From NCBI GenBank assembly GCA_000004985.1, contig GG738849.1: a DNA stretch of 64,000 nt. The stretch is one strand, 5' to 3'. The position numbers and the translations under genes are program-made. The notes under the pieces were generated by a model. That model was given only the letters and a program-made list of their open reading frames with translations. It did not search any database and had not been told where the DNA came from. This document shows, in pieces, positions 30,878 to 40,037 of this stretch; the stretch's first letter is position 1; each line of letters begins with the position of its first letter. Origin of the DNA: Naegleria gruberi. Lineage: Eukaryota.

Positions 30878-32824
30878 GTGCCGAAGAACATATCAAAATA
30901 TTGGAATCAATACCGTATTCAAATCATCTTAGCCACAATTTTATCATTACAAAGAAGCTCCATTGATGCAGAATTGTATGTGAAGGATCCATCATCAATG
31001 ATTTATGTATCAAAAGATGATGATTTGAAAAAACTTTCACCTCTGTCCATCCAATTAATTTTGGGAACCATAAGGCTTGTGAGTTGTTGGAATATATGAA
31101 GAATGTAAAAATGGATGCAATAATATTCCTAGTATTGATAACATTTTGCACAGAAAAAAACTACTCATGGAAGGAATTGATATGCATAAAAAGATCATGG
31201 AATATAAGATAGAATCCTTAAAGGTTGACAATGCACTGATGAACTTTTATACGAAATGTGAAATGCCAGATGAAGCATTAGAAATTTTTGACCACCTCAA
31301 AAGTGAAAAGAAACCAATTGATATTATAACATGGACTTGTACTATTCAAGCTTACATGTCCAAAAATCAAGTTTCAAAAGCTATGTCCTTACTCTCAGAA
31401 ATTCAATTATATCAAACCCCTGACCCAATATTGTTTTCAACAGTATTACATATTTGTGCTGAAAATAGGTTGATTGAAGAAGGACAGGAAATTCATCAAA
31501 GAATTAACAAATTGAAAAAGCAGAATATCATTTTAGACAATGCACTGATGAATTTTTATACGAAATGTGGAATGCCAGAAAAAGCATTAGAAATATTTGA
31601 AAAACTCAAAAGTGAAAAGAAGCCAATGGAGGTCATGATATGGAACTGTGCAATTCAAGCTCTTGGTGAACAAAAGAAGGCCATTGAGGCATTTTCTCTT
31701 TTCAAAGAAATGGAAAGTAATAGCATAATTCCAACTGAGATTACATTTAATATCTTGTTAAATATTTGTGCTGAAAATAAGTTGATTGAGGAAAGGACAG
31801 GAAATTCATCAAAGAATCAAAAAATTGAAAAAGCAGAATATCATTTTAGACAATGCATTGATGAATTTTTATACTAAATGTAAAATGCCAGATGAAGCAT
31901 TAGAAATATTTGAACAACTCAAAAATGAAAAGAAACCAATTGATATTATAACATGGACTTGTGCTATTCAAGCTCTTGTACAAAAGAAATGCATTGATGA
32001 GGCATTGGATTTACTTGAAACAAATGGCATCCAAGTCGACGAAGTGATTTATGTTGTACTTTTGACTGCATGTGCAAACGATGTGTCAATAGAAAAAGGT
32101 GAGCATGTTATCAAACTAATAGAATCGTCTGGAATGCTCACAGACCATATTATGTACGGAGCTGTTGTAAACTTTTATGCCAAAATTGGAAATATTCAAA
32201 AAGCTCTGTATTTTTTCAATGAATATGATGGCCCTCCTGAAAGTCTTTAATGATGTGGAAAGAGCTGAGAGAGCATTTAACATTTTATTAGAGCTCGATA
32301 AGGAGCAAGCAACTCATTATGTTCTAATGTCGCATGTGTACCTTCAAAGTGATCAACCAGAAAAAGCAAAAGAAATAAGGGAATTGATGAAAAAAAATGA
32401 GGTACAAAAGACACCTGGCATTACTACAATTGAAATTAATGGCAAAACTTATCATTTTTACTACAATGACGAAAGCCACCCCAAAAAGGAGGAAATATTT
32501 CAAGAATTGGACAAGTTATGCCAAGAAATGGAGCTCGCAGGCTATGTTCCAGACACGAGATGGGTTACTAAAACGGATGCCAATGATGAAGAAACAAAGA
32601 AACATTTACTTTCAAGGCATTCTGAAAAAATTGCATTATCATTTGCTTTCATTTCCCTTCCACCTGGATCACCAATAACAATACGAAATAATCTGAGAAT
32701 GTGTGGAGATTGTCACACAGCAACAAAGTTTATATCAAAAATCAGGAAGTGTGAAATTACGGTTAGAGATGCCAGTAGATATCATCACTTTAAGGATGGA
32801 AAGTGCAGCTGTGGAGACTTTTAA
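30878..32824 (+). CDS. PPR-E-DYW protein (plant-type DYW deaminase-domain PPR), frame disrupted by at least 3 single-nucleotide indels
   Basis: ORF 32177..32824 has an E-motif plus a complete DYW domain (HSEKIALSFAFI, NLRMCGDCHTATKFISKIRKCEITVRDASRYHHFKDGKCSCGDF). ORFs 31146..31877 and 31786..32250 hold PPR repeats (DNALMNFYTKCxMPxxALEIFxxLKxEKKP). They overlap in different frames. The shifts sit at A7 (near 31155), gaggaaagg (near 31790) and T6 (near 32208). An upstream ORF 30878..31099 and a third frame carry further repeat-like sequence. Confidence 0.7.
31215..31985 (+). repeat. Internal tandem nucleotide repeat (3 copies, period ~315-320 nt) inside the PPR-DYW gene
   Basis: gacaatgca[c/t]tgatgaa[c/t]ttttatac[g/t]aaatgt[g/a][a/g]aatgccaga... 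recurs at ~31215, ~31535 and ~31849. Copies 1 and 3 are nearly identical over >120 nt. Confidence 0.8.
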
Positions 32825-32858: not shown

Positions 32859-33824
32859 CTAATACATTTTCGGAACGTTTATTGTTGGATAAGCACCAGA
32901 GTTTGGATTTGGTACATAATTTGGATTAAAGTCATCTCTTCTCTTTCCAACTAATCCCAATTTCTTAATGGCACTATATTGTTCAGGAATTTCCATTAGG
33001 GCATGTAATGCAAAGGTGGCATCCACTGATTTTTTAGCCTCTCTGGCCTTCTTGGCAACTTCATCCCAATGGACAAATTGGAAATTATCAAACTTTCTCT
33101 GAGGTAACTCATCATCATAATTATGCATCAAATCAAAAGGTCCATCTCCTAAACCAACCATGACAATACTGATTGGATAATTGCTTGCCCTAACGATTGC
33201 TTCTTCAGTTTCCTTTTCATTGACAACCAAACCATCTGCCAAAATAATTAAAATATGATATTGACCTCTACCAGATTGCATGACAGTTTCAATTGCCTTT
33301 TCAATTACAGGTGCAAAGTTAGTTGGACCACTCAACTTGATGTGTGGCGTTATTCTTCTGTATTCATGTAAAACTTCTTCAAATCCTCTACATGGTCTGT
33401 ATTCACCATTAGGACAAAATGGGAAACAACCAAAATCACGACACTTATCATCTCCAAATCCTAAAACATCTATCAACTTGTCGTCATCAAACTTTTCCAA
33501 TGTTCTACCAATTATTGAGATGACTTTTTCATATGGATTTACAATATCACCAACCGGATCAATATAATGAAGACTTCTTCCTCCAAAGGTTTTTCTTCCT
33601 TGTTCTTCATTCGATTTTGTATAATCAATTCCGATGATCAAATTACATGATTCTAAACCAGTCTTTCTCAGGGCATCTTGCACCTCTTCAATGGAATTAT
33701 AATTATCACCAATAGCAAGTCCCAAGGCCGATTGTGAAGTAGTTTGTTGAGCATTGGCTTTTTTTGTTTTAGAATAAATAGCAATAATAGCCAGTATGAT
33801 CAGTATGATGGTGAATGGATCCAT
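32859..33824 (-). CDS. Copine-type vWA-domain protein with N-terminal membrane anchor (no C2 domains)
   Basis: 321 aa. It starts MDPFTIILIILAIIAIYS, which is hydrophobic. The copine A-domain signatures are NLIIGIDYTKSN, SLHYIDP, NPYEKVISIIG, DVLGFGD and ILIILADGLVVNEKETEEAIVRASNYPISIVMVGLGDGPFDLM. Confidence 0.7.
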   Translation of the reverse strand: MDPFTIILIILAIIAIYSKTKKANAQQTTSQSALGLAIGDNYNSIEEVQDALRKTGLESCNLIIGIDYTKSNEEQGRKTFGGRSLHYIDPVGDIVNPYEKVISIIGRTLEKFDDDKLIDVLGFGDDKCRDFGCFPFCPNGEYRPCRGFEEVLHEYRRITPHIKLSGPTNFAPVIEKAIETVMQSGRGQYHILIILADGLVVNEKETEEAIVRASNYPISIVMVGLGDGPFDLMHNYDDELPQRKFDNFQFVHWDEVAKKAREAKKSVDATFALHALMEIPEQYSAIKKLGLVGKRRDDFNPNYVPNPNSGAYPTINVPKMY

Positions 33825-34263: not shown

Positions 34264-34809
34264 ATGGCTGAATTACATCTTATTGGAGAAATTACAGGAG
34301 CAACAGGGTACAGGGAAGATAATCTGTTTTGCTCATTTCATGTTGAAAAGGGAAGTCACTGGACACATGTAAGCGGCTTGGAAAAAGGACAAACACAAGT
34401 AAATAAGAGACACGGAGAAGATATGGTCAATATATTTGCACATCCGATAGATATTCATTACTCAACACCAACTGTTGTAGGTTGGCCTAAAATAGTGATA
34501 CAAGTGTGGTACAATGATAATTATGGAAGAAATGATTTTGTGGCATATGGAGTTTTGAATATCCCTTCGCAGGGAGGTTACTTTGAATTGGAGTGTCCAA
34601 CATGGAGGCCAGTAGGAAATTTGAAGGATAGAATTGGTGACCTAGTTGTTGGTGGAAGAATGCAAGTAAAGGATTTATCAATTGTACATAACGGAGAAGA
34701 CAGAAGAAAGCTCACAACCATATCATGTGGAACTGTATATATCAAATTGAATGTATTATTAAGGAACTTTAAAAAGTATGGAGTTTCAACAACTCAGGTA
34801 CAACAATAA
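34264..34809 (+). CDS. B9D2: B9 domain-containing protein 2 (ciliary transition-zone MKS module)
   Basis: MAELHLIGEITGATGY...NLFCSF...GQTQV...FAHPIDIHYST...VGWPKIVIQVWYNDNYGRNDFVAYGVLNIPSQGGYFELECPTWRP. ATG at 34264, inside the larger ORF-track ORF. Confidence 0.75.
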   Translation: MAELHLIGEITGATGYREDNLFCSFHVEKGSHWTHVSGLEKGQTQVNKRHGEDMVNIFAHPIDIHYSTPTVVGWPKIVIQVWYNDNYGRNDFVAYGVLNIPSQGGYFELECPTWRPVGNLKDRIGDLVVGGRMQVKDLSIVHNGEDRRKLTTISCGTVYIKLNVLLRNFKKYGVSTTQVQQ

Positions 34810-34862: not shown

Positions 34863-36078
34863 TTAGAGAAAAGTTGGATTGGCAGTTGTAATGGATGGTT
34901 CCTCTGTTGATGTAGTTCCTTCCAATTGAGAATAGGTTCCGACATTACCCTCCCTTCTCTTCCCATATTCATCTAATACATTGTGAGCTACCAATACAGC
35001 ATCTCTGTCATAGGTTTCATAATCGAGTGGTCTTCTTCTCACAGTGGCTGAAGTAAATCTCGACTTGACATTAGAGACACCTGAAGTACCCTCATGTTTT
35101 GTGAGAGCTCCTGTATTTTGTTCGGCGATACTCTTTCTGAATGCAATTTTCACTTCTGGATCCAATTCTTCGATACGATGAATTTTACCATCTCTCATGT
35201 AGACAACTCTGTCAGCTGCATTTTTCAAGTTAGGGTCGTGAGTAACCATGACCATTGTAATTCCATCTTCCTGATTGAGTTTGATGAGTAGATCCATAAC
35301 ATTAAGGGTATTTTTTGTATCCAAGTCACCACTATAAATCCATATCAGGTTTTCAGGTTTAGAATATTAGTCAATTCAATGTTAAAGTTAAATTAGAAAA
35401 TGTTAGAAAATTCTAAATAAATGAAATACATACGTTGGTTCATCTAAAAGTAAAATTTCTGGGTGATTAGAAATGGCTCTGGCAATTGTGACACGCTGTT
35501 GTTCACCTCCTGACAATTGATTAGGAGAGTGATCGAAACGATGTCCCATTCCAACTTTTTCTAACAACTTTTTAGCTCTTTCTCTTCTTGTTGATTTACT
35601 CACATTTCCTTGTAAAATCATTGGCATTTCCACATTTTCCAAAGCAGACATTGTTGATAATAAGTTAAAAGTTTGAAATACAAATCCCATTCTAGCCAAT
35701 CTAATATTGGCCAATGTTTCATCCTTTGTATTTGAAGTAACACGTTCTCCACAAATTGTCAAGTGACCCTTTGTTGGTTTATCAATAGTTCCAATAATAT
35801 TCAACATGGAGGTTTTACCACCTAAATGTGTGATGAAGATGTGTTGTTGATAATATTATTAATATTATTTATCACAATTATTATTATCATCATCATATCA
35901 TTAAATACACTACCTCCTGAAGTTCCGTAAATAACAAGAAATTCTCCTCTTTTCACTTTTAAATTAACTCCTCTCAAGGCAGGAACACCTTCAATACCTA
36001 ACAAGTAGGTTTTTTGAATATTATCCAATTCTATTATATAATCAGTTGTATCAACTTCTCCGACTTGTTTGAAGAGAC
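34863..36078 (-). CDS. Bacterial-type ABC transporter ATP-binding protein (LolD/MacB/FtsE-like NBD, ABCH-like), at least 3 exons, with C-terminal extension
   Basis: Exon A is 35915..~36078 (IIELDNIQKTYLLGIEGVPALRGVNLKVKRGEFLVIYGTSGG, Walker A split by the intron). Intron 35823..35914 is 92 nt (GTAGTG...TTTAG, phase 1). Exon B is 35434..35822 (GKTSMLNIIG, Q-loop, LSGGEQQRVTIARA, ILLLDEPT). Intron 35342..35433 is 92 nt (GTATGT...TTATAG, phase 2). Exon C is 34863..35341 (GDLDTKNTLNVMDLLIKL...ITMVMVTHD, then a ~130-aa non-ABC tail). No ATG lies upstream in frame, so a further 5' exon is possible. No TMD is attached. Confidence 0.75.
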
Positions 36079-36361
36079 TAAATTATTCGAAATATTATAT
36101 AAATTCATATTACGATCCAATTAAAATCACATACTTTTCAAATCCCTTGTTAAAGTCCTTCTCCTCCGTATTTTTCATAATGTTGATGGATATGTTTTTA
36201 ATGATGATGGATAATGATGATTATCACTGTGGTAGAGGTCTTTTTTTTAATTGATGATTGTGACGATTCTTGCTATTGAGCGCATATTCAACTCCGCTTC
36301 TAACATAACAATTAAATTTACTTTACAATATATTAATATATATTAAATTTTTAATCATTTA

Positions 36362-36756
36362 CAGCACGTTTACTTCAAATTTGACGCGTTTTTTGAAAGA
36401 AAATAAATTATTTAGAAAAAATTTTGTTGTTCTTCTGTTGTCAAATCCAAAATAAGCATTTCAATAGAACAACACCTAACCACTCGTTCTTACTCATTTC
36501 TACATATTTTTGAGAATGCTGCCACCCCAAGGGGTATGTCAATGCGAGGATTCATAATTTGAAGTCAGATTTCAAAACTACCTTAATTCCATCGAGAAAT
36601 TAGCATTTTGTTGAATAAAATATTATCGTTACAGATTCTTTTCAAATGGAGTTGAGTTTACTTGCCAAATCAAAATTGAAAGATGAAATACTTTAAATTT
36701 TAAAAAAAACAATTTTAATTTCCCCAAATCTTGTCAAACTTGAAGTAAACGTGCTG
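36362..36756. mobile_element. MITE-like non-autonomous DNA transposon (395 bp, 24-bp terminal inverted repeats, TA target-site duplication)
   Basis: The left end is cagcacgtttacttcaaatttgac (36362..36385). The right end 36733..36756 is its reverse complement with 1 mismatch (gtcaaacttgaagtaaacgtgctg). Both ends are immediately flanked by TA (36360-36361 and 36757-36758). The interior is AT-rich with no ORF. Confidence 0.6.
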
Positions 36757-36863
36757 TACAATTCAATAATTTAAACTTGATGTAAGAAAACAATACAATA
36801 GAAACAACAACGGAAGAAAAAGTGAAAGTGTCCAAATCTCCAACAAGACAACTTAAAAAAATT

Positions 36864-38048
36864 ATGATGCACAATTCAAAGACCCAACCATTCTCCATGA
36901 TGGGTCACACACCACTATCATCGGAGAGGAGGAAATATCGAAGAATGGAACAAATTATAAAACATCTTATACCTTTTGCAACTATTAAAAGTAGTAGTAG
37001 TATTGAAGAAAATAATTATTGTACAACAAGTGTAAATAATAATAGAAAATGTGAAAATAATAATCAAATGATGGAAATATTACAATTTTTAATAAGACAC
37101 ATTCTTGTTACTAAAAGGAATAATAAGGATTCTATCAATCAATTAAATATAATCCTACAAAAATATATTCAACAAACGAATGGGGATTTTAAAAAGTATT
37201 TACCAATCGGAATTATTGCAGGACTGATATGTGCAAACAAATATAATCAAAATAATAGTACTATATCGAATAGATTTAATATTGTAAAAAACATTTTTAG
37301 TAACAGTGCTGGAATTTTAAAAGATAACAATATTGCAGTCACAATTCATCATTTGAGTATGATTGAAATTTTAATTGCCATTTCAATTATTGTTACATTT
37401 TCTGGACTTACAGGAGCTGTGCTTGCACAAGTTTACGAAGAAAGTCGTGTGAGTAATGCCTTGTTAGATTTGGCAAAATTACAGGAAGGACTAGTTCTTT
37501 ATTTCACAAGACATGGTAAATATCCACTTTCACTTGAGGATTTATTAGAAGGAGGCGAGTTGAATAAGGTTCCAAAAGATCCTTGGGGAACAGATTACCT
37601 CTATGTCCCTCACCTCGATTGGAATCGTCTTAATAGAATTTTACTCACCACAACAACAAGCAATAGTGGAAATAATTCTACTTCACAACAACAATTAACA
37701 TATTTCAATGAAGTATTGAAGAGAATGGAAACTGTTCTGATAACATTACCTGGAGGTGTCACACCCATGTCATTACTAGCAATTGCCAATGAACAACCTT
37801 TCTGTATTTGTGTGGGAACAAAGATACCTCGTTTCCCAAGCAAGATTGATGTTGATGTATCGAGAGAACGTATCAGATATGTGGCCAATTTGATGAAAAT
37901 GTCTATGGAGAGAAGTAGTGTTGCTGGAAGTGTTCAATCCAATAATCAACAAGGTGTCACCTCAATAATGAATCAAATTACTGAATTGAATGCCAGAATT
38001 AAGAATATTTTAAATGTTACCAGACAAGCATCAGGTGGTGGAGAATAA
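36864..38048 (+). CDS. GspG: Type II secretion system major pseudopilin GspG homolog (mitochondrial T2SS-derived system) with long N- and C-terminal extensions
   Basis: The pseudopilin core is SMIEILIAISIIVTFSGLTGAVLAQVYEESRVSNALLDLAKLQEGLVLYFTRHGKYPLSLEDLLEGGELNKVPKDPWGTDYLYVP. This is an N-terminal hydrophobic helix with Glu at about +5, followed by the GspG-specific KxPKDPWGxxY motif. A ~180-aa basic N-terminal extension precedes it. The ORF-track ORF starts at a GTG at 36822. The first ATG is at 36864. Confidence 0.8.
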   Translation: MMHNSKTQPFSMMGHTPLSSERRKYRRMEQIIKHLIPFATIKSSSSIEENNYCTTSVNNNRKCENNNQMMEILQFLIRHILVTKRNNKDSINQLNIILQKYIQQTNGDFKKYLPIGIIAGLICANKYNQNNSTISNRFNIVKNIFSNSAGILKDNNIAVTIHHLSMIEILIAISIIVTFSGLTGAVLAQVYEESRVSNALLDLAKLQEGLVLYFTRHGKYPLSLEDLLEGGELNKVPKDPWGTDYLYVPHLDWNRLNRILLTTTTSNSGNNSTSQQQLTYFNEVLKRMETVLITLPGGVTPMSLLAIANEQPFCICVGTKIPRFPSKIDVDVSRERIRYVANLMKMSMERSSVAGSVQSNNQQGVTSIMNQITELNARIKNILNVTRQASGGGE

Positions 38049-38196: not shown

Positions 38197-39867
38197 ATGT
38201 CTCGCAAAAAGGAACCTGTTGTCGAAGGACTTTCTGCTGCCGAAGCAAAAGTAAGAGCTTCCAGCGAAATTGTAAAGGAATTATTAAAAGCCTATGATAG
38301 TAATGAAACAGTTGTGATGGCAAAAGTCAGAGCACGTATTTCACGTAAATATAAATTAAAAACAGGACCAAAATTAGTAGAAATTATTGCAGCCATTCCG
38401 GAGGAACATAAATCAAAATTATTACCACTCTTGAAGGCCAAACCAATCCGTACAGCCAGTGGTATTGCTGTTGTTGCTGTAATGTGTAAACCTCACAGAT
38501 GTCCTCATATTGCCATGACAGGAAATGTTTGTTTATATTGTCCTGGTGGTCCTGACTCTGATTTTGAATACTCTACACAATCTTATACAGGTTATGAACC
38601 TACTAGTATGAGAGCTATTAGAGCTCGTTATAACCCATATCTTCAAACTAGAAATCGTATTGATCAATTGAAGAGACTTGGTCACGATTGTGATAAAGTT
38701 GAATTCATCATCATGGGTGGTACATTTATGAGTTTGGAAAAGGAATATCGTGATGAATTTATTAGAAATTTACATGATGCTCTCTCCGGTCACACCAGTT
38801 CAAGTGTCGAAGAAGCAATCAGATATAGTGAACAAAGCAAGCAAAAGTGTATTGGTATTACTATTGAAACAAGACCTGATTATTGTTTAAAGCCACACAT
38901 TTCTAATTTATTGGAATATGGTTGTACCAGACTTGAAATTGGTGTTCAATCTATTTATGAAGATATTGCTCGTGACACAAATCGTGGTCACACTGTTGCT
39001 TCTGTTAAACGTTCTTTCACATTGGCAAAGGATCAAGGTTACAAAATTGTTGCTCATATGATGCCTGACTTGCCAAACTCTGACATGGAAAGAGATATTC
39101 TTGGATTTATTGAATATTTTGAAAATCCTGCATTTAGAACTGATGGTCTTAAACTTTATCCAACATTGGTTATTAGAGGTACAGGATTGTATGAACTGTG
39201 GAAGACAGGACAATACAAGAATTATTCACCTGATTCATTGGTTGACTTGGTTGCTAAAATCATGTCACTTGTTCCTCCATGGACAAGAGTTTACCGTATT
39301 CAACGTGATATTCCAATGCCTCTTGTTACAAGTGGTGTTGAAAAGGGTAACTTGAGAGAATTGGCTTTGGCTAGAATGAAAGATTTGGGTTTGAAATGTC
39401 GTGATGTCAGAACTAGAGAAGTTGGTATTCAATCTATTCACACTAAGATTATTCCTGATGAAGTTGAACTCATTAGAAGGGATTATTGTGCTCAAGATGG
39501 TTGGGAAACTTTCCTTGCTTATGAAGATGCTGCTCAAGATATTTTAATTGGTTTATTACGTTTGAGAAAATGTACTCAAACTGATACTACTTTCCGTAAG
39601 GAATTGAAGAATGACCAAATTGCCCAAGCAAGTATTGTAAGAGAATTACACGTTTATGGTTCTGTTGTTCCTGTTCGTGCCAGAGATCCAACTAAATTCC
39701 AACACAAGGGTTATGGTACATTACTCATGGAAGAAGCTGAAAGAATTGCCAGAGAAGAACATGGCAGTCAAAAACTCCTAGTTATCAGTGGTGTTGGTAC
39801 TAGACATTATTATAGAAAATTAGGCTATGAATTGGATGGTCCATATATGAGTAAGATGCTTGTGTAA
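38197..39867 (+). CDS. ELP3: Elongator complex protein 3 (radical-SAM / GNAT tRNA modification enzyme)
   Basis: 556 aa, single exon, near-identical to metazoan ELP3 over long stretches ([89 protein letters not shown]). Confidence 0.95.
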
Positions 39868-39971: not shown

Positions 39972-40037
39972 CGCCCCACGTGGGGCTCGAGCCATTGGAT
40001 TAAAAGTCCAACGCTCTACCGACTGAGCTAGCGGGGC
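39972..40037 (-). tRNA. tRNA-Lys(UUU)-like sequence with non-canonical 3' half (possible pseudo-tRNA)
   Basis: The minus strand reads GCCCCGC-TA-GCTCAGTCGGTAGAGC-G-TTGGA-CTTTTAA-TCCAA-TGG... This gives a perfect acceptor 5' arm, D-arm and anticodon arm with anticodon UUU. There is no GTTCGANTCC T-arm. The 3' portion CTCGAGCCCCACGTGGGGCG is ~7 nt too short and GC-rich palindromic. GTGGGGC could still pair with the 5' acceptor via one G-U. Confidence 0.4.

Follow-up and report, generated by a model that had tools for sequence, protein, structure and literature searches.

A spliced ABC ATPase gene beside GspG1 in Naegleria gruberi encodes a member of the eukaryote-wide AbcH-type family

In the 64,000-nucleotide stretch of the Naegleria gruberi genome analyzed here (the window), a gene for an ABC ATPase of prokaryotic type stands head to head with a GspG gene. 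The question arises as to what such an ATPase is, and whether its position means anything: an earlier note on this DNA had proposed a functional link with GspG, in the form of a co-regulated export machinery of bacterial ancestry. Our answer, which we hold to be quite probable as a whole, is that the gene encodes an ordinary member of the AbcH-type family, that its product would be a soluble ATP motor, and that it lies beside GspG1 by chance.

The locus is a real, spliced nuclear gene. It is read from the minus strand in four exons, and its product has 354 amino acids (Table 1); the gene model is based on homology. The coding sequence, whose limit had first been placed at position 36078, continues into a 5' exon that begins with an ATG at 36178. 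Splicing of this exon restores the reading frame, and a FENLF motif that spans its junction with exon 2 aligns with SFENLF of Willaertia. When exon 2 is read without splicing, it has a TAA stop, and no in-frame ATG lies upstream of it. The Willaertia orthologue has an intron at the same codon and in the same phase, phase 2 (TTTGAAAA/GTACG...TTAG/TTTATTC).

The earlier note had counted two introns of 92 nt; one intron does have this length, but there are three in all, of 57, 92 and 102 nt, each of them canonical GT-AG. As had been claimed, the codons of Walker A are split by an intron, which falls in phase 1 inside Gly70. Intron 3 lies between Walker B and the D-loop, and its retention brings in a stop codon, the unspliced open reading frame ending in ...LLLDEPTYVFHLFRIF. 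The positions of introns 2 and 3 are both uninterrupted in the orthologues of Willaertia, Acrasis and a metagenome amoeba, as judged by tblastn (for intron 2, one ungapped alignment runs across the site in all three). The spliced product gives a gap-free alignment over every junction, with 19 as well as with 112 homologues, and invariant residues flank each junction.

Table 1. Positions, within the window, of the ABC ATPase gene, the segments of its product and the neighboring gene.
Feature	Coordinates	Strand	Description
Exon 1	36135..36178	-	44 nt; ATG at 36178; codes MKNTEEKDFNKGFE and the first two bases of Asn15
Intron 1	36078..36134	-	57 nt; GTATGTGA...TAATTTAG; 19% GC
Exon 2	35914..36077	-	N-terminal NBD strands and first half of Walker A (GTSGG)
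Intron 2	35822..35913	-	92 nt; GTAGTGTA...ACATTTAG; 21% GC; phase 1, inside Gly70 (Walker A)
Exon 3	35434..35821	-	rest of Walker A (GKT), Q-loop Q119, helical subdomain FNLLSTMSALENVEMPMIL
Signature (exon 3)	35496..35516	-	LSGGEQQ
Walker B and catalytic Glu (exon 3)	35439..35456	-	ILLLDE
Intron 3	35332..35433	-	102 nt; GTATGTAT...ATTTATAG; 22% GC; phase 2, inside Thr199
Exon 4	34863..35331	-	D-loop GDLD, H-loop THD (35243-35235), NBD end, ~100-aa tail, stop TAA (34865-34863)
Post-NBD helix	35103..35162	-	residues 256-275, DPEVKIAFRKSIAEQNTGAL; R/K260, L267 and L271 family-conserved (alignment column counts)
Tail motif	35010..35045	-	T295-V-R-R298-R-P300-L-D302-Y303-E-T305-Y
Divergent intergenic region	36179..36863	.	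685 bp between the ABC and NgGspG1 start codons
NgGspG1	36864..38048	+	394 aa; Pfam T2SSG 2.6e-5, above gathering score

The product is made of one complete ABC nucleotide-binding domain (NBD) and a tail of about 100 residues (~256-354), shorter than the ~130 given before. Its sole Pfam match is ABC_tran (PF00005; 2.3e-31, 109.7 bits for a cut-off of 25). The catalytic motifs are all intact and in canonical order: GTSGGGKT (with K72 of Walker A), Q119, LSGGEQQ, ILLLDE (D196, and E197 as the catalytic glutamate), GDLD and THD (H230). The strings quoted at the outset (IIELDNIQKTY, GEFLVIYGTSGGGKTSM, LSGGEQQRVTIARA, ILLLDEPTGDLD and VMVTHD) are all found in it, and the absence of a transmembrane domain (TMD) is confirmed, since no segment is hydrophobic (over 19 residues, the Kyte-Doolittle mean does not rise above 0.9).

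The tail has features of its own, namely a helix conserved in the family and a near-invariant motif, for which the family consensus is T-E-phi-R-x-P-x-D-Y-x-T-[HYF]. In 113 sequences, the T is conserved in 102, the R in 106, the P in 105 and the Y in 108 (each at least 90%); the family signature T-x-x-R-x-P-x-x-Y was derived in the present analysis and does not come from the literature. AlphaFold2 models of the orthologues of Willaertia (81% identical) and Andalucia were used in place of one of the Naegleria protein. The equivalent of the helix has block-mean pLDDT values of roughly 91 to 98 in the two models; those of the motif are 87 to 95 in Willaertia and 63 to 76 in Andalucia. No match to the motif occurs in the 80 closest prokaryotic loci, translated in six frames. 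Three prokaryotic loci (L012, L022 and L068) appeared to align into the tail and were rejected, as the alignments cross stop codons.

By profile, by sequence and by fold (the latter from the Willaertia model), the NBD belongs to the MacB/LolD/YbbA/FtsE class. In NCBIfam, the models that fit it best are LolD (4.3e-65), MacB (2.5e-64), YbbA (1.3e-61) and FtsE (3.8e-60), with DevA also among the best. Every equivalog cut-off is missed (219.3 against 307.75 for LolD, TIGR02211; 203.2 against 264.85 for FtsE, TIGR02673; 217.7 against 966 for MacB, NF007826; 208.3 against 336 for YbbA, NF007879), and the protein is therefore not an orthologue of LolD, MacB or FtsE. The best match among PDB sequences is MJ0796 (4.8e-67), followed by MacB, YbbA and LolD. 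Foldseek, given the Willaertia model, returned MacB, MJ0796, YbbA and LolD, with target-normalized TM-scores of about 0.88 to 0.95 and an rmsd of 1.4 to 2.2 over some 229 columns. The initial description of the locus, a spliced nuclear gene for a TMD-less ATPase of the prokaryotic LolD/MacB/FtsE type, is upheld.

Judged by its sequence, the gene is the N. gruberi orthologue of a eukaryote-wide family of ABC ATPases that have a single NBD and no membrane domain. This family includes the Dictyostelium type known as AbcH.1/AbcH.2 or 'non-transporter ABC protein'. The amoebal ABCH class, to which the gene had already been compared, turns out to be an apt parallel, homologues being named AbcH.1, 'ABC transporter H family member 2' or 'non-transporter ABC protein'. 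The original definition of AbcH is reportedly that of Anjard and Loomis in 2002. Members occur in Heterolobosea, jakobids, malawimonads, Hemimastix, Ancoracysta, Cyanophora, Amoebozoa, chytrids and Fonticula. Named homologues, 50 to 81% identical by BLASTP, come from Willaertia, Acrasis, Heterolobosea sp. BB2, Pharyngomonas, Percolomonas, Andalucia, Gefionella, Hemimastix, Ancoracysta, Cyanophora, Physarum, dictyostelids, Balamuthia, Vexillifera, chytrids, Allomyces and Fonticula. Among the named best matches listed, none is from an animal, a land plant or a dikaryan.

In prokaryotes, the best matches have an identity of 52% or less and extend over the NBD alone. When the comparison is limited to the trimmed NBD, identity is 67 to 90% with eukaryotic homologues (90% with Willaertia) and does not exceed 52% with prokaryotes. 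In a neighbor-joining tree that also included the 20 closest prokaryotic NBDs and LolD, MacB, FtsE, YbbA, MetN and MsbA of E. coli, the eukaryotic sequences form a clade in 199 of 200 bootstraps; within it, heteroloboseans, fungi and myxogastrid/dictyostelid amoebozoans each cluster. Members of this clade all lack a permease and share the post-NBD helix and the tail motif. None of the 160 homologues listed is fused to a membrane domain, and the extensions of five long members (Percolomonas, 914 aa, Fonticula, 549 aa, and others) consist of low-complexity sequence only.

Grouping of the NBD within a standard eukaryotic ABC subfamily had been named beforehand, together with a lack of expression correlation with miT2SS genes, as an outcome that would count against the proposal of bacterial origin and export. 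This outcome is reached in part: the NBD does fall in a eukaryote-wide clade, but this clade is not one of ABCA to ABCG. The family is clearly derived from MacB/LolD-class ATPases. Given the position of the NBD in a clade found across eukaryotes, the bacterial ancestry first proposed is ancient and common to many of them, and is no peculiarity of Naegleria. The family seems to be of great age, and its origin may reach back to the last eukaryotic common ancestor.

What the protein may do has to be considered next. The AbcH-type family is known and functionally uncharacterized, and the Naegleria protein is an ordinary member of it; we found no experiments on the function of the family in the searchable literature. 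The protein is probably cytosolic or peripherally attached, because its sequence offers no presequence-like N-terminus, signal peptide, transmembrane segment or SKL-like end. Targeting was judged with crude sequence heuristics: the N-terminus, with 7 acidic residues and 4 basic ones in its first 30, is acidic and does not look like a mitochondrial presequence, and the C-terminus, ...ANPTFL, does not resemble SKL. The mechanistic part of our explanation is extrapolated from the ABC class. By analogy with other ABC NBDs, an ATP-sandwich homodimer would close and hydrolyze ATP; the helical-subdomain region and the tail motif would probably pass the ATP-driven movement on to some partner, and the protein would be a motor rather than a transporter in its own right.

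A bolder idea, which we regard as improbable, is that the whole family is a eukaryotic remnant of MacB-type (type VII) mechanotransmission: the motor would have been kept, the FtsX permease lost, and a C-terminal module gained that possibly couples ATP hydrolysis to a eukaryotic partner. The module in question consists of the post-NBD helix and the T-E-phi-R-x-P-x-D-Y-x-T motif, and is found in eukaryotes only. In this view, many free-living protists and early-diverging fungi would have kept the family. The family is a reasonable target for functional study in Dictyostelium.

Four other scenarios are considered: a split transporter, an accessory motor of the GspG pathway, a pseudogene, and a recent acquisition from bacteria. 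The partner permease of type VII ABC systems has a four-helix FtsX fold with an extracytoplasmic domain, and is either fused to the ATPase or a separate subunit. The closest prokaryotic relatives of the Naegleria NBD all adjoin, or are fused with, MacB_PCD+FtsX permeases with which they work (one is next to an HlyD-type adaptor), so that the Naegleria protein might be the detached ATPase of a true transporter or mechanotransducer, whose permease, with an FtsX-like or some other fold, would have its gene at another place in the genome. In the structures of MacB and LolCDE, the Q-loop/helical-subdomain region receives the coupling helix, and this region is almost invariant across eukaryotic members (F121, N122, L123, A129, N132, V133, P136), as would suit such a partnership. 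However, the region is conserved throughout the NBD class, and its conservation in eukaryotes may therefore be purely structural. Moreover, a search for the partner found no FtsX- or MacB_PCD-like coding sequence in the window (tblastn, E of at least 1) and no such permease within 10 kb at the loci of Willaertia, Acrasis and the metagenome amoeba (20 kb each), and the homologues listed are, as said, free of fused membrane domains. We therefore consider a split transporter unlikely.

The gene has a neighbor whose identity as GspG, given in the earlier note, is correct: besides the Pfam match, the protein is 100% identical to N. gruberi XP_002681672.1, which is listed as NgGspG1 in the supplement of a published study (PMC8134430). 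The two start codons (36178 and 36864) are 685 bp apart, and not ~750 bp as estimated before. The region between them holds a segment of about 400 bp bounded by inverted repeats, and an Rfam search of it gave a single miRNA match at chance level.

From this arrangement one could conclude that the two genes share a bidirectional promoter and form a co-regulated export system of bacterial ancestry, with the ABC protein as an accessory motor of the mitochondrial type II secretion system (miT2SS). Both genes descend from bacterial envelope systems, and the ABC family is present in every miT2SS-bearing group sampled (Naegleria/Willaertia, Pharyngomonas, Andalucia, Gefionella, Hemimastix). Yet GspE, rather than an ABC ATPase, drives the bacterial T2SS, and the acidic N-terminus, devoid of a presequence-like or transmembrane segment, does not fit with such a role. 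Nor is the adjacency conserved: in Willaertia magna both genes exist, on different contigs, neither having the other within 10 kb, and the single GspG locus retrieved from N. lovaniensis, which could be a paralogue rather than the orthologue of GspG1, has no ABC gene within 10 kb. Finally, the family is widespread in eukaryotes without Gsp genes. These genes are reported to be missing from all eukaryotes except named heteroloboseans, jakobids, malawimonads and hemimastigotes (PMC8134430). According to the same study, the proteins that co-occur with them are Gsp-related paralogues, WD40 and ubiquitin-like paralogues, orphan families and Gcp16, with no ABC protein; occurrence in exactly the same taxa as the Gsp genes is what defines a Gcp (PMC8134430). 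The AbcH-type family lacks this co-occurrence, being found outside the Gsp taxa in Amoebozoa, chytrids/Holomycota, Fonticula, Cyanophora and Ancoracysta. Of the mitochondrial proteome table for N. gruberi, the part examined has ABC entries of the ABC1 and ABCB types only, with none that matches this gene and no neighboring accession numbers; the Naegleria protein may be absent from the database searched for that table.

An accessory miT2SS motor is thus very unlikely, and the proposed functional link and co-regulated export find no support. Nothing beyond position links the ABC gene to GspG1, and the two would be neighbors by chance in a compact genome rather than a functional unit. A shared bidirectional promoter could give incidental co-expression in N. 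gruberi, and a lineage-specific use of the ABC protein with the miT2SS may be envisaged, as a formal possibility, since all sampled miT2SS-bearing lineages have the family. The gene provides no evidence for ABC-assisted mitochondrial secretion, and the miT2SS parts list therefore remains unchanged. More generally, the case illustrates that neighboring genes in the compact genome of Naegleria are not to be interpreted as one would a bacterial operon.

The locus could also be a decaying pseudogene, or a set of chance open reading frames, which would account for the lack of an N. gruberi protein matching it in a database of 5.8 billion clusters where the neighboring GspG1 is present at 100%. This is highly improbable: once the three canonical introns are removed, the frame is open over 354 codons, all 57 of the 57 family-invariant residues are kept, and the trimmed NBD is as close to that of Willaertia as stated above. 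Among the public N. gruberi proteins that were queried, the gene model appears to be lacking, so the annotation could be improved. As for the idea that the Naegleria lineage recently gained a bacterial LolD/MacB-type gene by horizontal transfer, or that the assembly is contaminated by bacteria, which the bacterial families among the top curated profiles and the lack of a TMD might evoke, it is effectively refuted by three spliceosomal-type introns (one in common with Willaertia), a GC content in line with that of the rest of the window (0.34), eukaryotic flanking genes (B9-C2, copine and ELP3), the higher NBD identity to eukaryotes than to prokaryotes, and a monophyletic eukaryotic clade whose internal branching follows organismal groups.

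How the ordinary AbcH-type member compares with known systems can now be summarized. With the prokaryotic type VII ATPases (MacB, LolD, YbbA, FtsE and MJ0796) it shares all the catalytic motifs, its NBD being 37 to 43% identical to those of E. coli and up to 52% identical to the closest sequences from metagenome-assembled genomes; it differs in its spliceosomal introns, its eukaryote-only tail, and the absence, by fusion or elsewhere in the window, of the permease that is fused or adjacent in these relatives. Its likeness to Gcp1-16 lies only in its closeness to NgGspG1 in the N. gruberi genome, whereas its family is found well outside the Gsp taxa. A link to plant ABCI19/20/21 was considered and dropped: no plant protein is among the 160 best matches of the two homologue searches, and ABCI19-21 may belong to another soluble ABC group. 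With the metazoan ABCH proteins (insect ABCH1/ABCH2, zebrafish abch1), the letter H and the ABC NBD superfamily are all it has in common; these are half transporters in which the NBD is followed by a six-helix TMD, whereas the Naegleria protein has none, and the shared name is a nomenclature clash.

The closest counterpart is the Dictyostelium-type AbcH. Both are single NBDs without a TMD, 300 to 500 aa in length, with a common N-terminal (Y/L)(F/Y)G motif, post-NBD helix and tail motif, and both fall in the clade recovered in 199 of 200 bootstraps. Identity to the AbcH-named proteins of dictyostelids, Physarum, chytrids and Andalucia is 48 to 54% over full-length alignments and 67 to 71% over the trimmed NBD. 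Nothing essential differs: the Naegleria copy has two extra introns, one in Walker A and one after Walker B, and a short N-terminus.

The ABC gene is a new, apparently unannotated member of the AbcH-type family, the Dictyostelium-type eukaryotic ABC proteins with a single nucleotide-binding domain (NBD) and no membrane domain. Translation of the minus strand between 34800 and 36300 gave ORF pieces that jointly hold all the ABC ATPase motifs quoted in the earlier note, and joining four exons yields a 1065-nt open frame with a 354-aa product. The coding sequence reaches 36178, beyond the limit of 36078 first proposed. Two introns of 92 nt had been claimed; one has that length, and there are three in total (57, 92 and 102 nt), all canonical GT-AG and 19-22% GC. 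Intron 2 does split the Walker A codons, as had been noted, falling in Gly70 (GTSGG/GKT), while intron 3 falls in Thr199 at the Walker B/D-loop boundary (LLLDEPT/GDLD). If intron 2 is kept, its 92 nt, a length not divisible by three, put everything downstream out of frame; if intron 3 is kept, translation meets a stop codon. Without splicing, exon 2 contains a stop and lacks an in-frame ATG upstream; the 36135-36077 junction yields FENLF, which matches SFENLF of Willaertia in the alignment, and at this very phase-2 position the gene of Willaertia is also interrupted by an intron.

This 5' intron is the only one common to the two genes. The orthologues of Willaertia, Acrasis and the metagenome amoeba lack introns 35822-35913 and 35332-35433; in them, single ungapped alignments span both positions. 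Such a pattern suggests that, at highly conserved codons, the Naegleria lineage acquired introns or the other lineages lost them. A database of 5.8 billion protein clusters returned no N. gruberi protein for the ABC gene, the best match being Willaertia (81%), but did return the adjacent GspG1 (100% identical). The reference annotation may lack the ABC gene or model it wrongly.

ABC_tran was the only Pfam match. The top NCBIfam models (LolD, MacB, YbbA, DevA and FtsE; E-values 1e-60 to 1e-65) and the nearest solved structures by sequence (MJ0796, pneumococcal MacAB-like ATPase, MacB, YbbA, LolD, YtrE and BceA, with ABCB1-type NBDs about 90 bits lower) agree with the proposed LolD/MacB/FtsE-type NBD as a class, but scores lie far under every equivalog cut-off of those models. 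The AlphaFold2 model of the Willaertia orthologue (mean pLDDT 85) has an NBD with target-normalised TM-scores of about 0.88-0.95 to MacB, MJ0796, YbbA and LolD; its tail had no match among solved structures. The catalytic set is complete (K72, Q119, LSGGEQQ, D196/E197, GDLD, H230). No hydrophobic segment was found in the protein, in line with the reported lack of a transmembrane domain. Residues 1-30 include 7 acidic and 4 basic ones, and the C-terminus is ...ANPTFL.

The same cluster search gave a dense set of eukaryotic homologues of 300-500 aa, from Heterolobosea (Willaertia magna, Acrasis kona, Heterolobosea sp. BB2, Pharyngomonas, Percolomonas), other protists (Andalucia godoyi, 'ABC transporter H family member 2'; Gefionella, Hemimastix, Ancoracysta, Cyanophora), many Amoebozoa (the dictyostelid ones named 'non-transporter ABC protein') and Holomycota (chytrids and Allomyces, 'AbcH.1'; Blastocladiella, Fonticula). 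Animal, land-plant and dikaryan proteins were absent from the 160 matches listed, which lend no support to a kinship with the plant ABCI19-21 proteins. Among 185,579 prokaryotic genomes, the top matches were at most 52% identical and spanned residues ~29-250, the NBD alone; these NBD genes adjoin, or are fused with, MacB_PCD+FtsX permeases, and one adjoins an HlyD-type adaptor gene. In a neighbour-joining tree (218 well-aligned columns, 200 bootstraps) with the 20 closest prokaryotic NBDs and E. coli LolD, MacB, FtsE, YbbA, MetN and MsbA, the 19 eukaryotic sequences fell into a single clade 199 times out of 200, within which heteroloboseans, fungi and myxogastrid/dictyostelid amoebozoans each cluster. 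Such a topology marks an old eukaryotic gene family passed on vertically. The bacterial ancestry put forward earlier stands as descent from type VII ABC ATPases, and not as a recent horizontal transfer, which the tree does not fit.

Among family members, the Percolomonas cosmopolitus (914 aa) and Fonticula alba (549 aa) proteins carry long low-complexity Ser/Thr/Pro-rich N-terminal extensions of ~560 and ~220 aa, in which no recognisable domain was seen on reading the sequences, followed by a typical NBD and tail. A long metagenome-derived eukaryotic contig (loci L002/L003; JGI metagenome 3300037860, contig Ga0401357_00082, 165 kb, 39% GC; Logan SRR12689282) encodes an orthologue that has no introns, shares 64% identity with the window protein and clusters with Acrasis; the contig's source is probably an uncultured heterolobosean-like amoeba.

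Outside the NBD, 113 sequences of the family share an N-terminal (Y/L)(F/Y)G motif that leads into an acidic stretch, and a post-NBD helix (residues 256-275 in the window protein). Past a variable linker, the tail, about 100 aa long and not ~130 as first estimated, carries the motif T295-x-x-R298-x-P300-x-D302-Y303-x-T305, whose T, R, P and Y are each kept in at least 90% of the sequences. Six-frame translations of the 80 closest prokaryotic loci gave zero matches to it, which marks the conserved tail as specific to eukaryotes in this comparison, and a Pfam search of the tail gave none. AlphaFold2 block-mean pLDDT of the helix is roughly 91-98 in the Willaertia and Andalucia orthologues alike; that of the motif region is 87-95 in Willaertia and 63-76 in Andalucia. 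These values suggest that the tail motif packs onto the NBD. No experimentally known function of the family was found in the literature searched, and the motif is a potentially useful handle on it.

In ABC proteins, two NBDs hold two ATP head-to-tail and then hydrolyse them, as in the structures of MJ0796, MacB and LolCDE; in the type VII systems of prokaryotes, the partner has an FtsX fold, and NBD motion reaches its coupling helices by way of the Q-loop/helical-subdomain groove. By analogy, two copies of the ABC protein would clamp two ATP head-to-tail and hydrolyse them. The groove region, F121-L139, is almost invariant in the family, and the groove would still be occupied, by a partner or by the protein's own tail. 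Most likely the protein is an ATP-driven motor, cytosolic or peripherally attached, that works on a partner. That the partner is a separately encoded permease seems improbable: the permease sought following the earlier note was found neither in the window nor in the Willaertia, Acrasis and metagenome-amoeba loci, and no homologue whose sequence was read has a fused one.

The question arises as to whether the gene is linked to its divergent neighbour. All 394 aa of that ORF match N. gruberi XP_002681672.1 (100% identity), a protein listed as NgGspG1 in the supplement of PMC8134430 and mitochondrial by antibody localisation (PMC8134430); the match identifies the window as N. gruberi. Willaertia, Acrasis and the metagenome-derived amoeba contig have no GspG-like sequence within 10 kb of the ABC gene; in Willaertia (GC of the loci 0.24-0.27, versus 0.30-0.38 in the window) GspG is on JBEGDK010000149 and the ABC gene on another contig, ...064. 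Nor is there an ABC gene within 10 kb of the N. lovaniensis GspG locus, itself possibly a paralogue of GspG1, N. gruberi having two GspG paralogues. Gsp genes are reported absent from many lineages that carry the AbcH-type family, and the Gsp-co-occurring proteins described (Gsp-related paralogues, WD40 and ubiquitin-like paralogues, orphan families and Gcp16) include no ABC protein (PMC8134430). The completed 5' exon, now found, gives no presequence-like N-terminus. With N. gruberi genes packed so tightly, chance is expected to produce head-to-head pairs; the convergent B9-C2 gene leaves 53 bp between stop codons. We conclude that the adjacency is a coincidence. The functional pairing with GspG, the striking part of the original finding, is not upheld, given its absence from relatives' loci, the presence of the family in Gsp-less lineages and the lack of a presequence-like N-terminus.

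Coordinates of the ABC gene exons and of other features in the window
Feature	Position	Strand	Support
ABC gene, exon 1	36178-36135	-	
ABC gene, exon 2	36077-35914	-	
ABC gene, exon 3	35821-35434	-	
ABC gene, exon 4	35331-34863	-	
NgGspG1	36864-38048	+	
Inverted-repeat arms	36360-36388 and 36730-36758		
Extended arms	36360-36423 and 36695-36758		64 nt, 70% complementary
PPR protein with E, E+, DYW deaminase domains	31786-32824	+	DYW_deaminase 2.2e-38
Copine	32859-33824	-	3.7e-62
B9-C2 ciliary transition-zone protein	34264-34809	+	8.6e-52
ELP3 (radical SAM + GNAT), intronless	38197-39867	+	
tRNA match	39972-40037	-	Rfam 43.8 bits (gathering score 29)

The flanking B9-C2, copine and ELP3 genes are ordinary eukaryotic genes. 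Between the ABC gene and GspG1, a ~400-bp segment is flanked by inverted repeats, the two arms of which share the core TACAGCACGTTTACTTCAA without a mismatch; chance would give 0.04 such matches. The segment resembles a MITE-type insertion; the window holds no second copy, and Rfam recognised no family within the segment. The PPR protein is of the plant-type RNA-editing factor class; its repeats (31786-32250) and E/E+/DYW part (32177-32824) are in different reading frames, and therefore an intron or frameshift joins them. Just downstream of ELP3, the tRNA match has an anticodon loop CUUUUAA, read as Lys-UUU, and a variable/T-arm region of 12 nt versus 18 in the model; ARAGORN called no tRNA there, and it may be degenerate or unusual.

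Compared with known systems, the ABC gene product would resemble type VII ABC ATPases in its working, and descends from them, but it falls short of the NCBIfam equivalog cut-offs of LolD, FtsE, YbbA and MacB alike. It belongs instead with the Dictyostelium-type AbcH, or 'non-transporter ABC', family, which is distinct from the metazoan ABCH half transporters.
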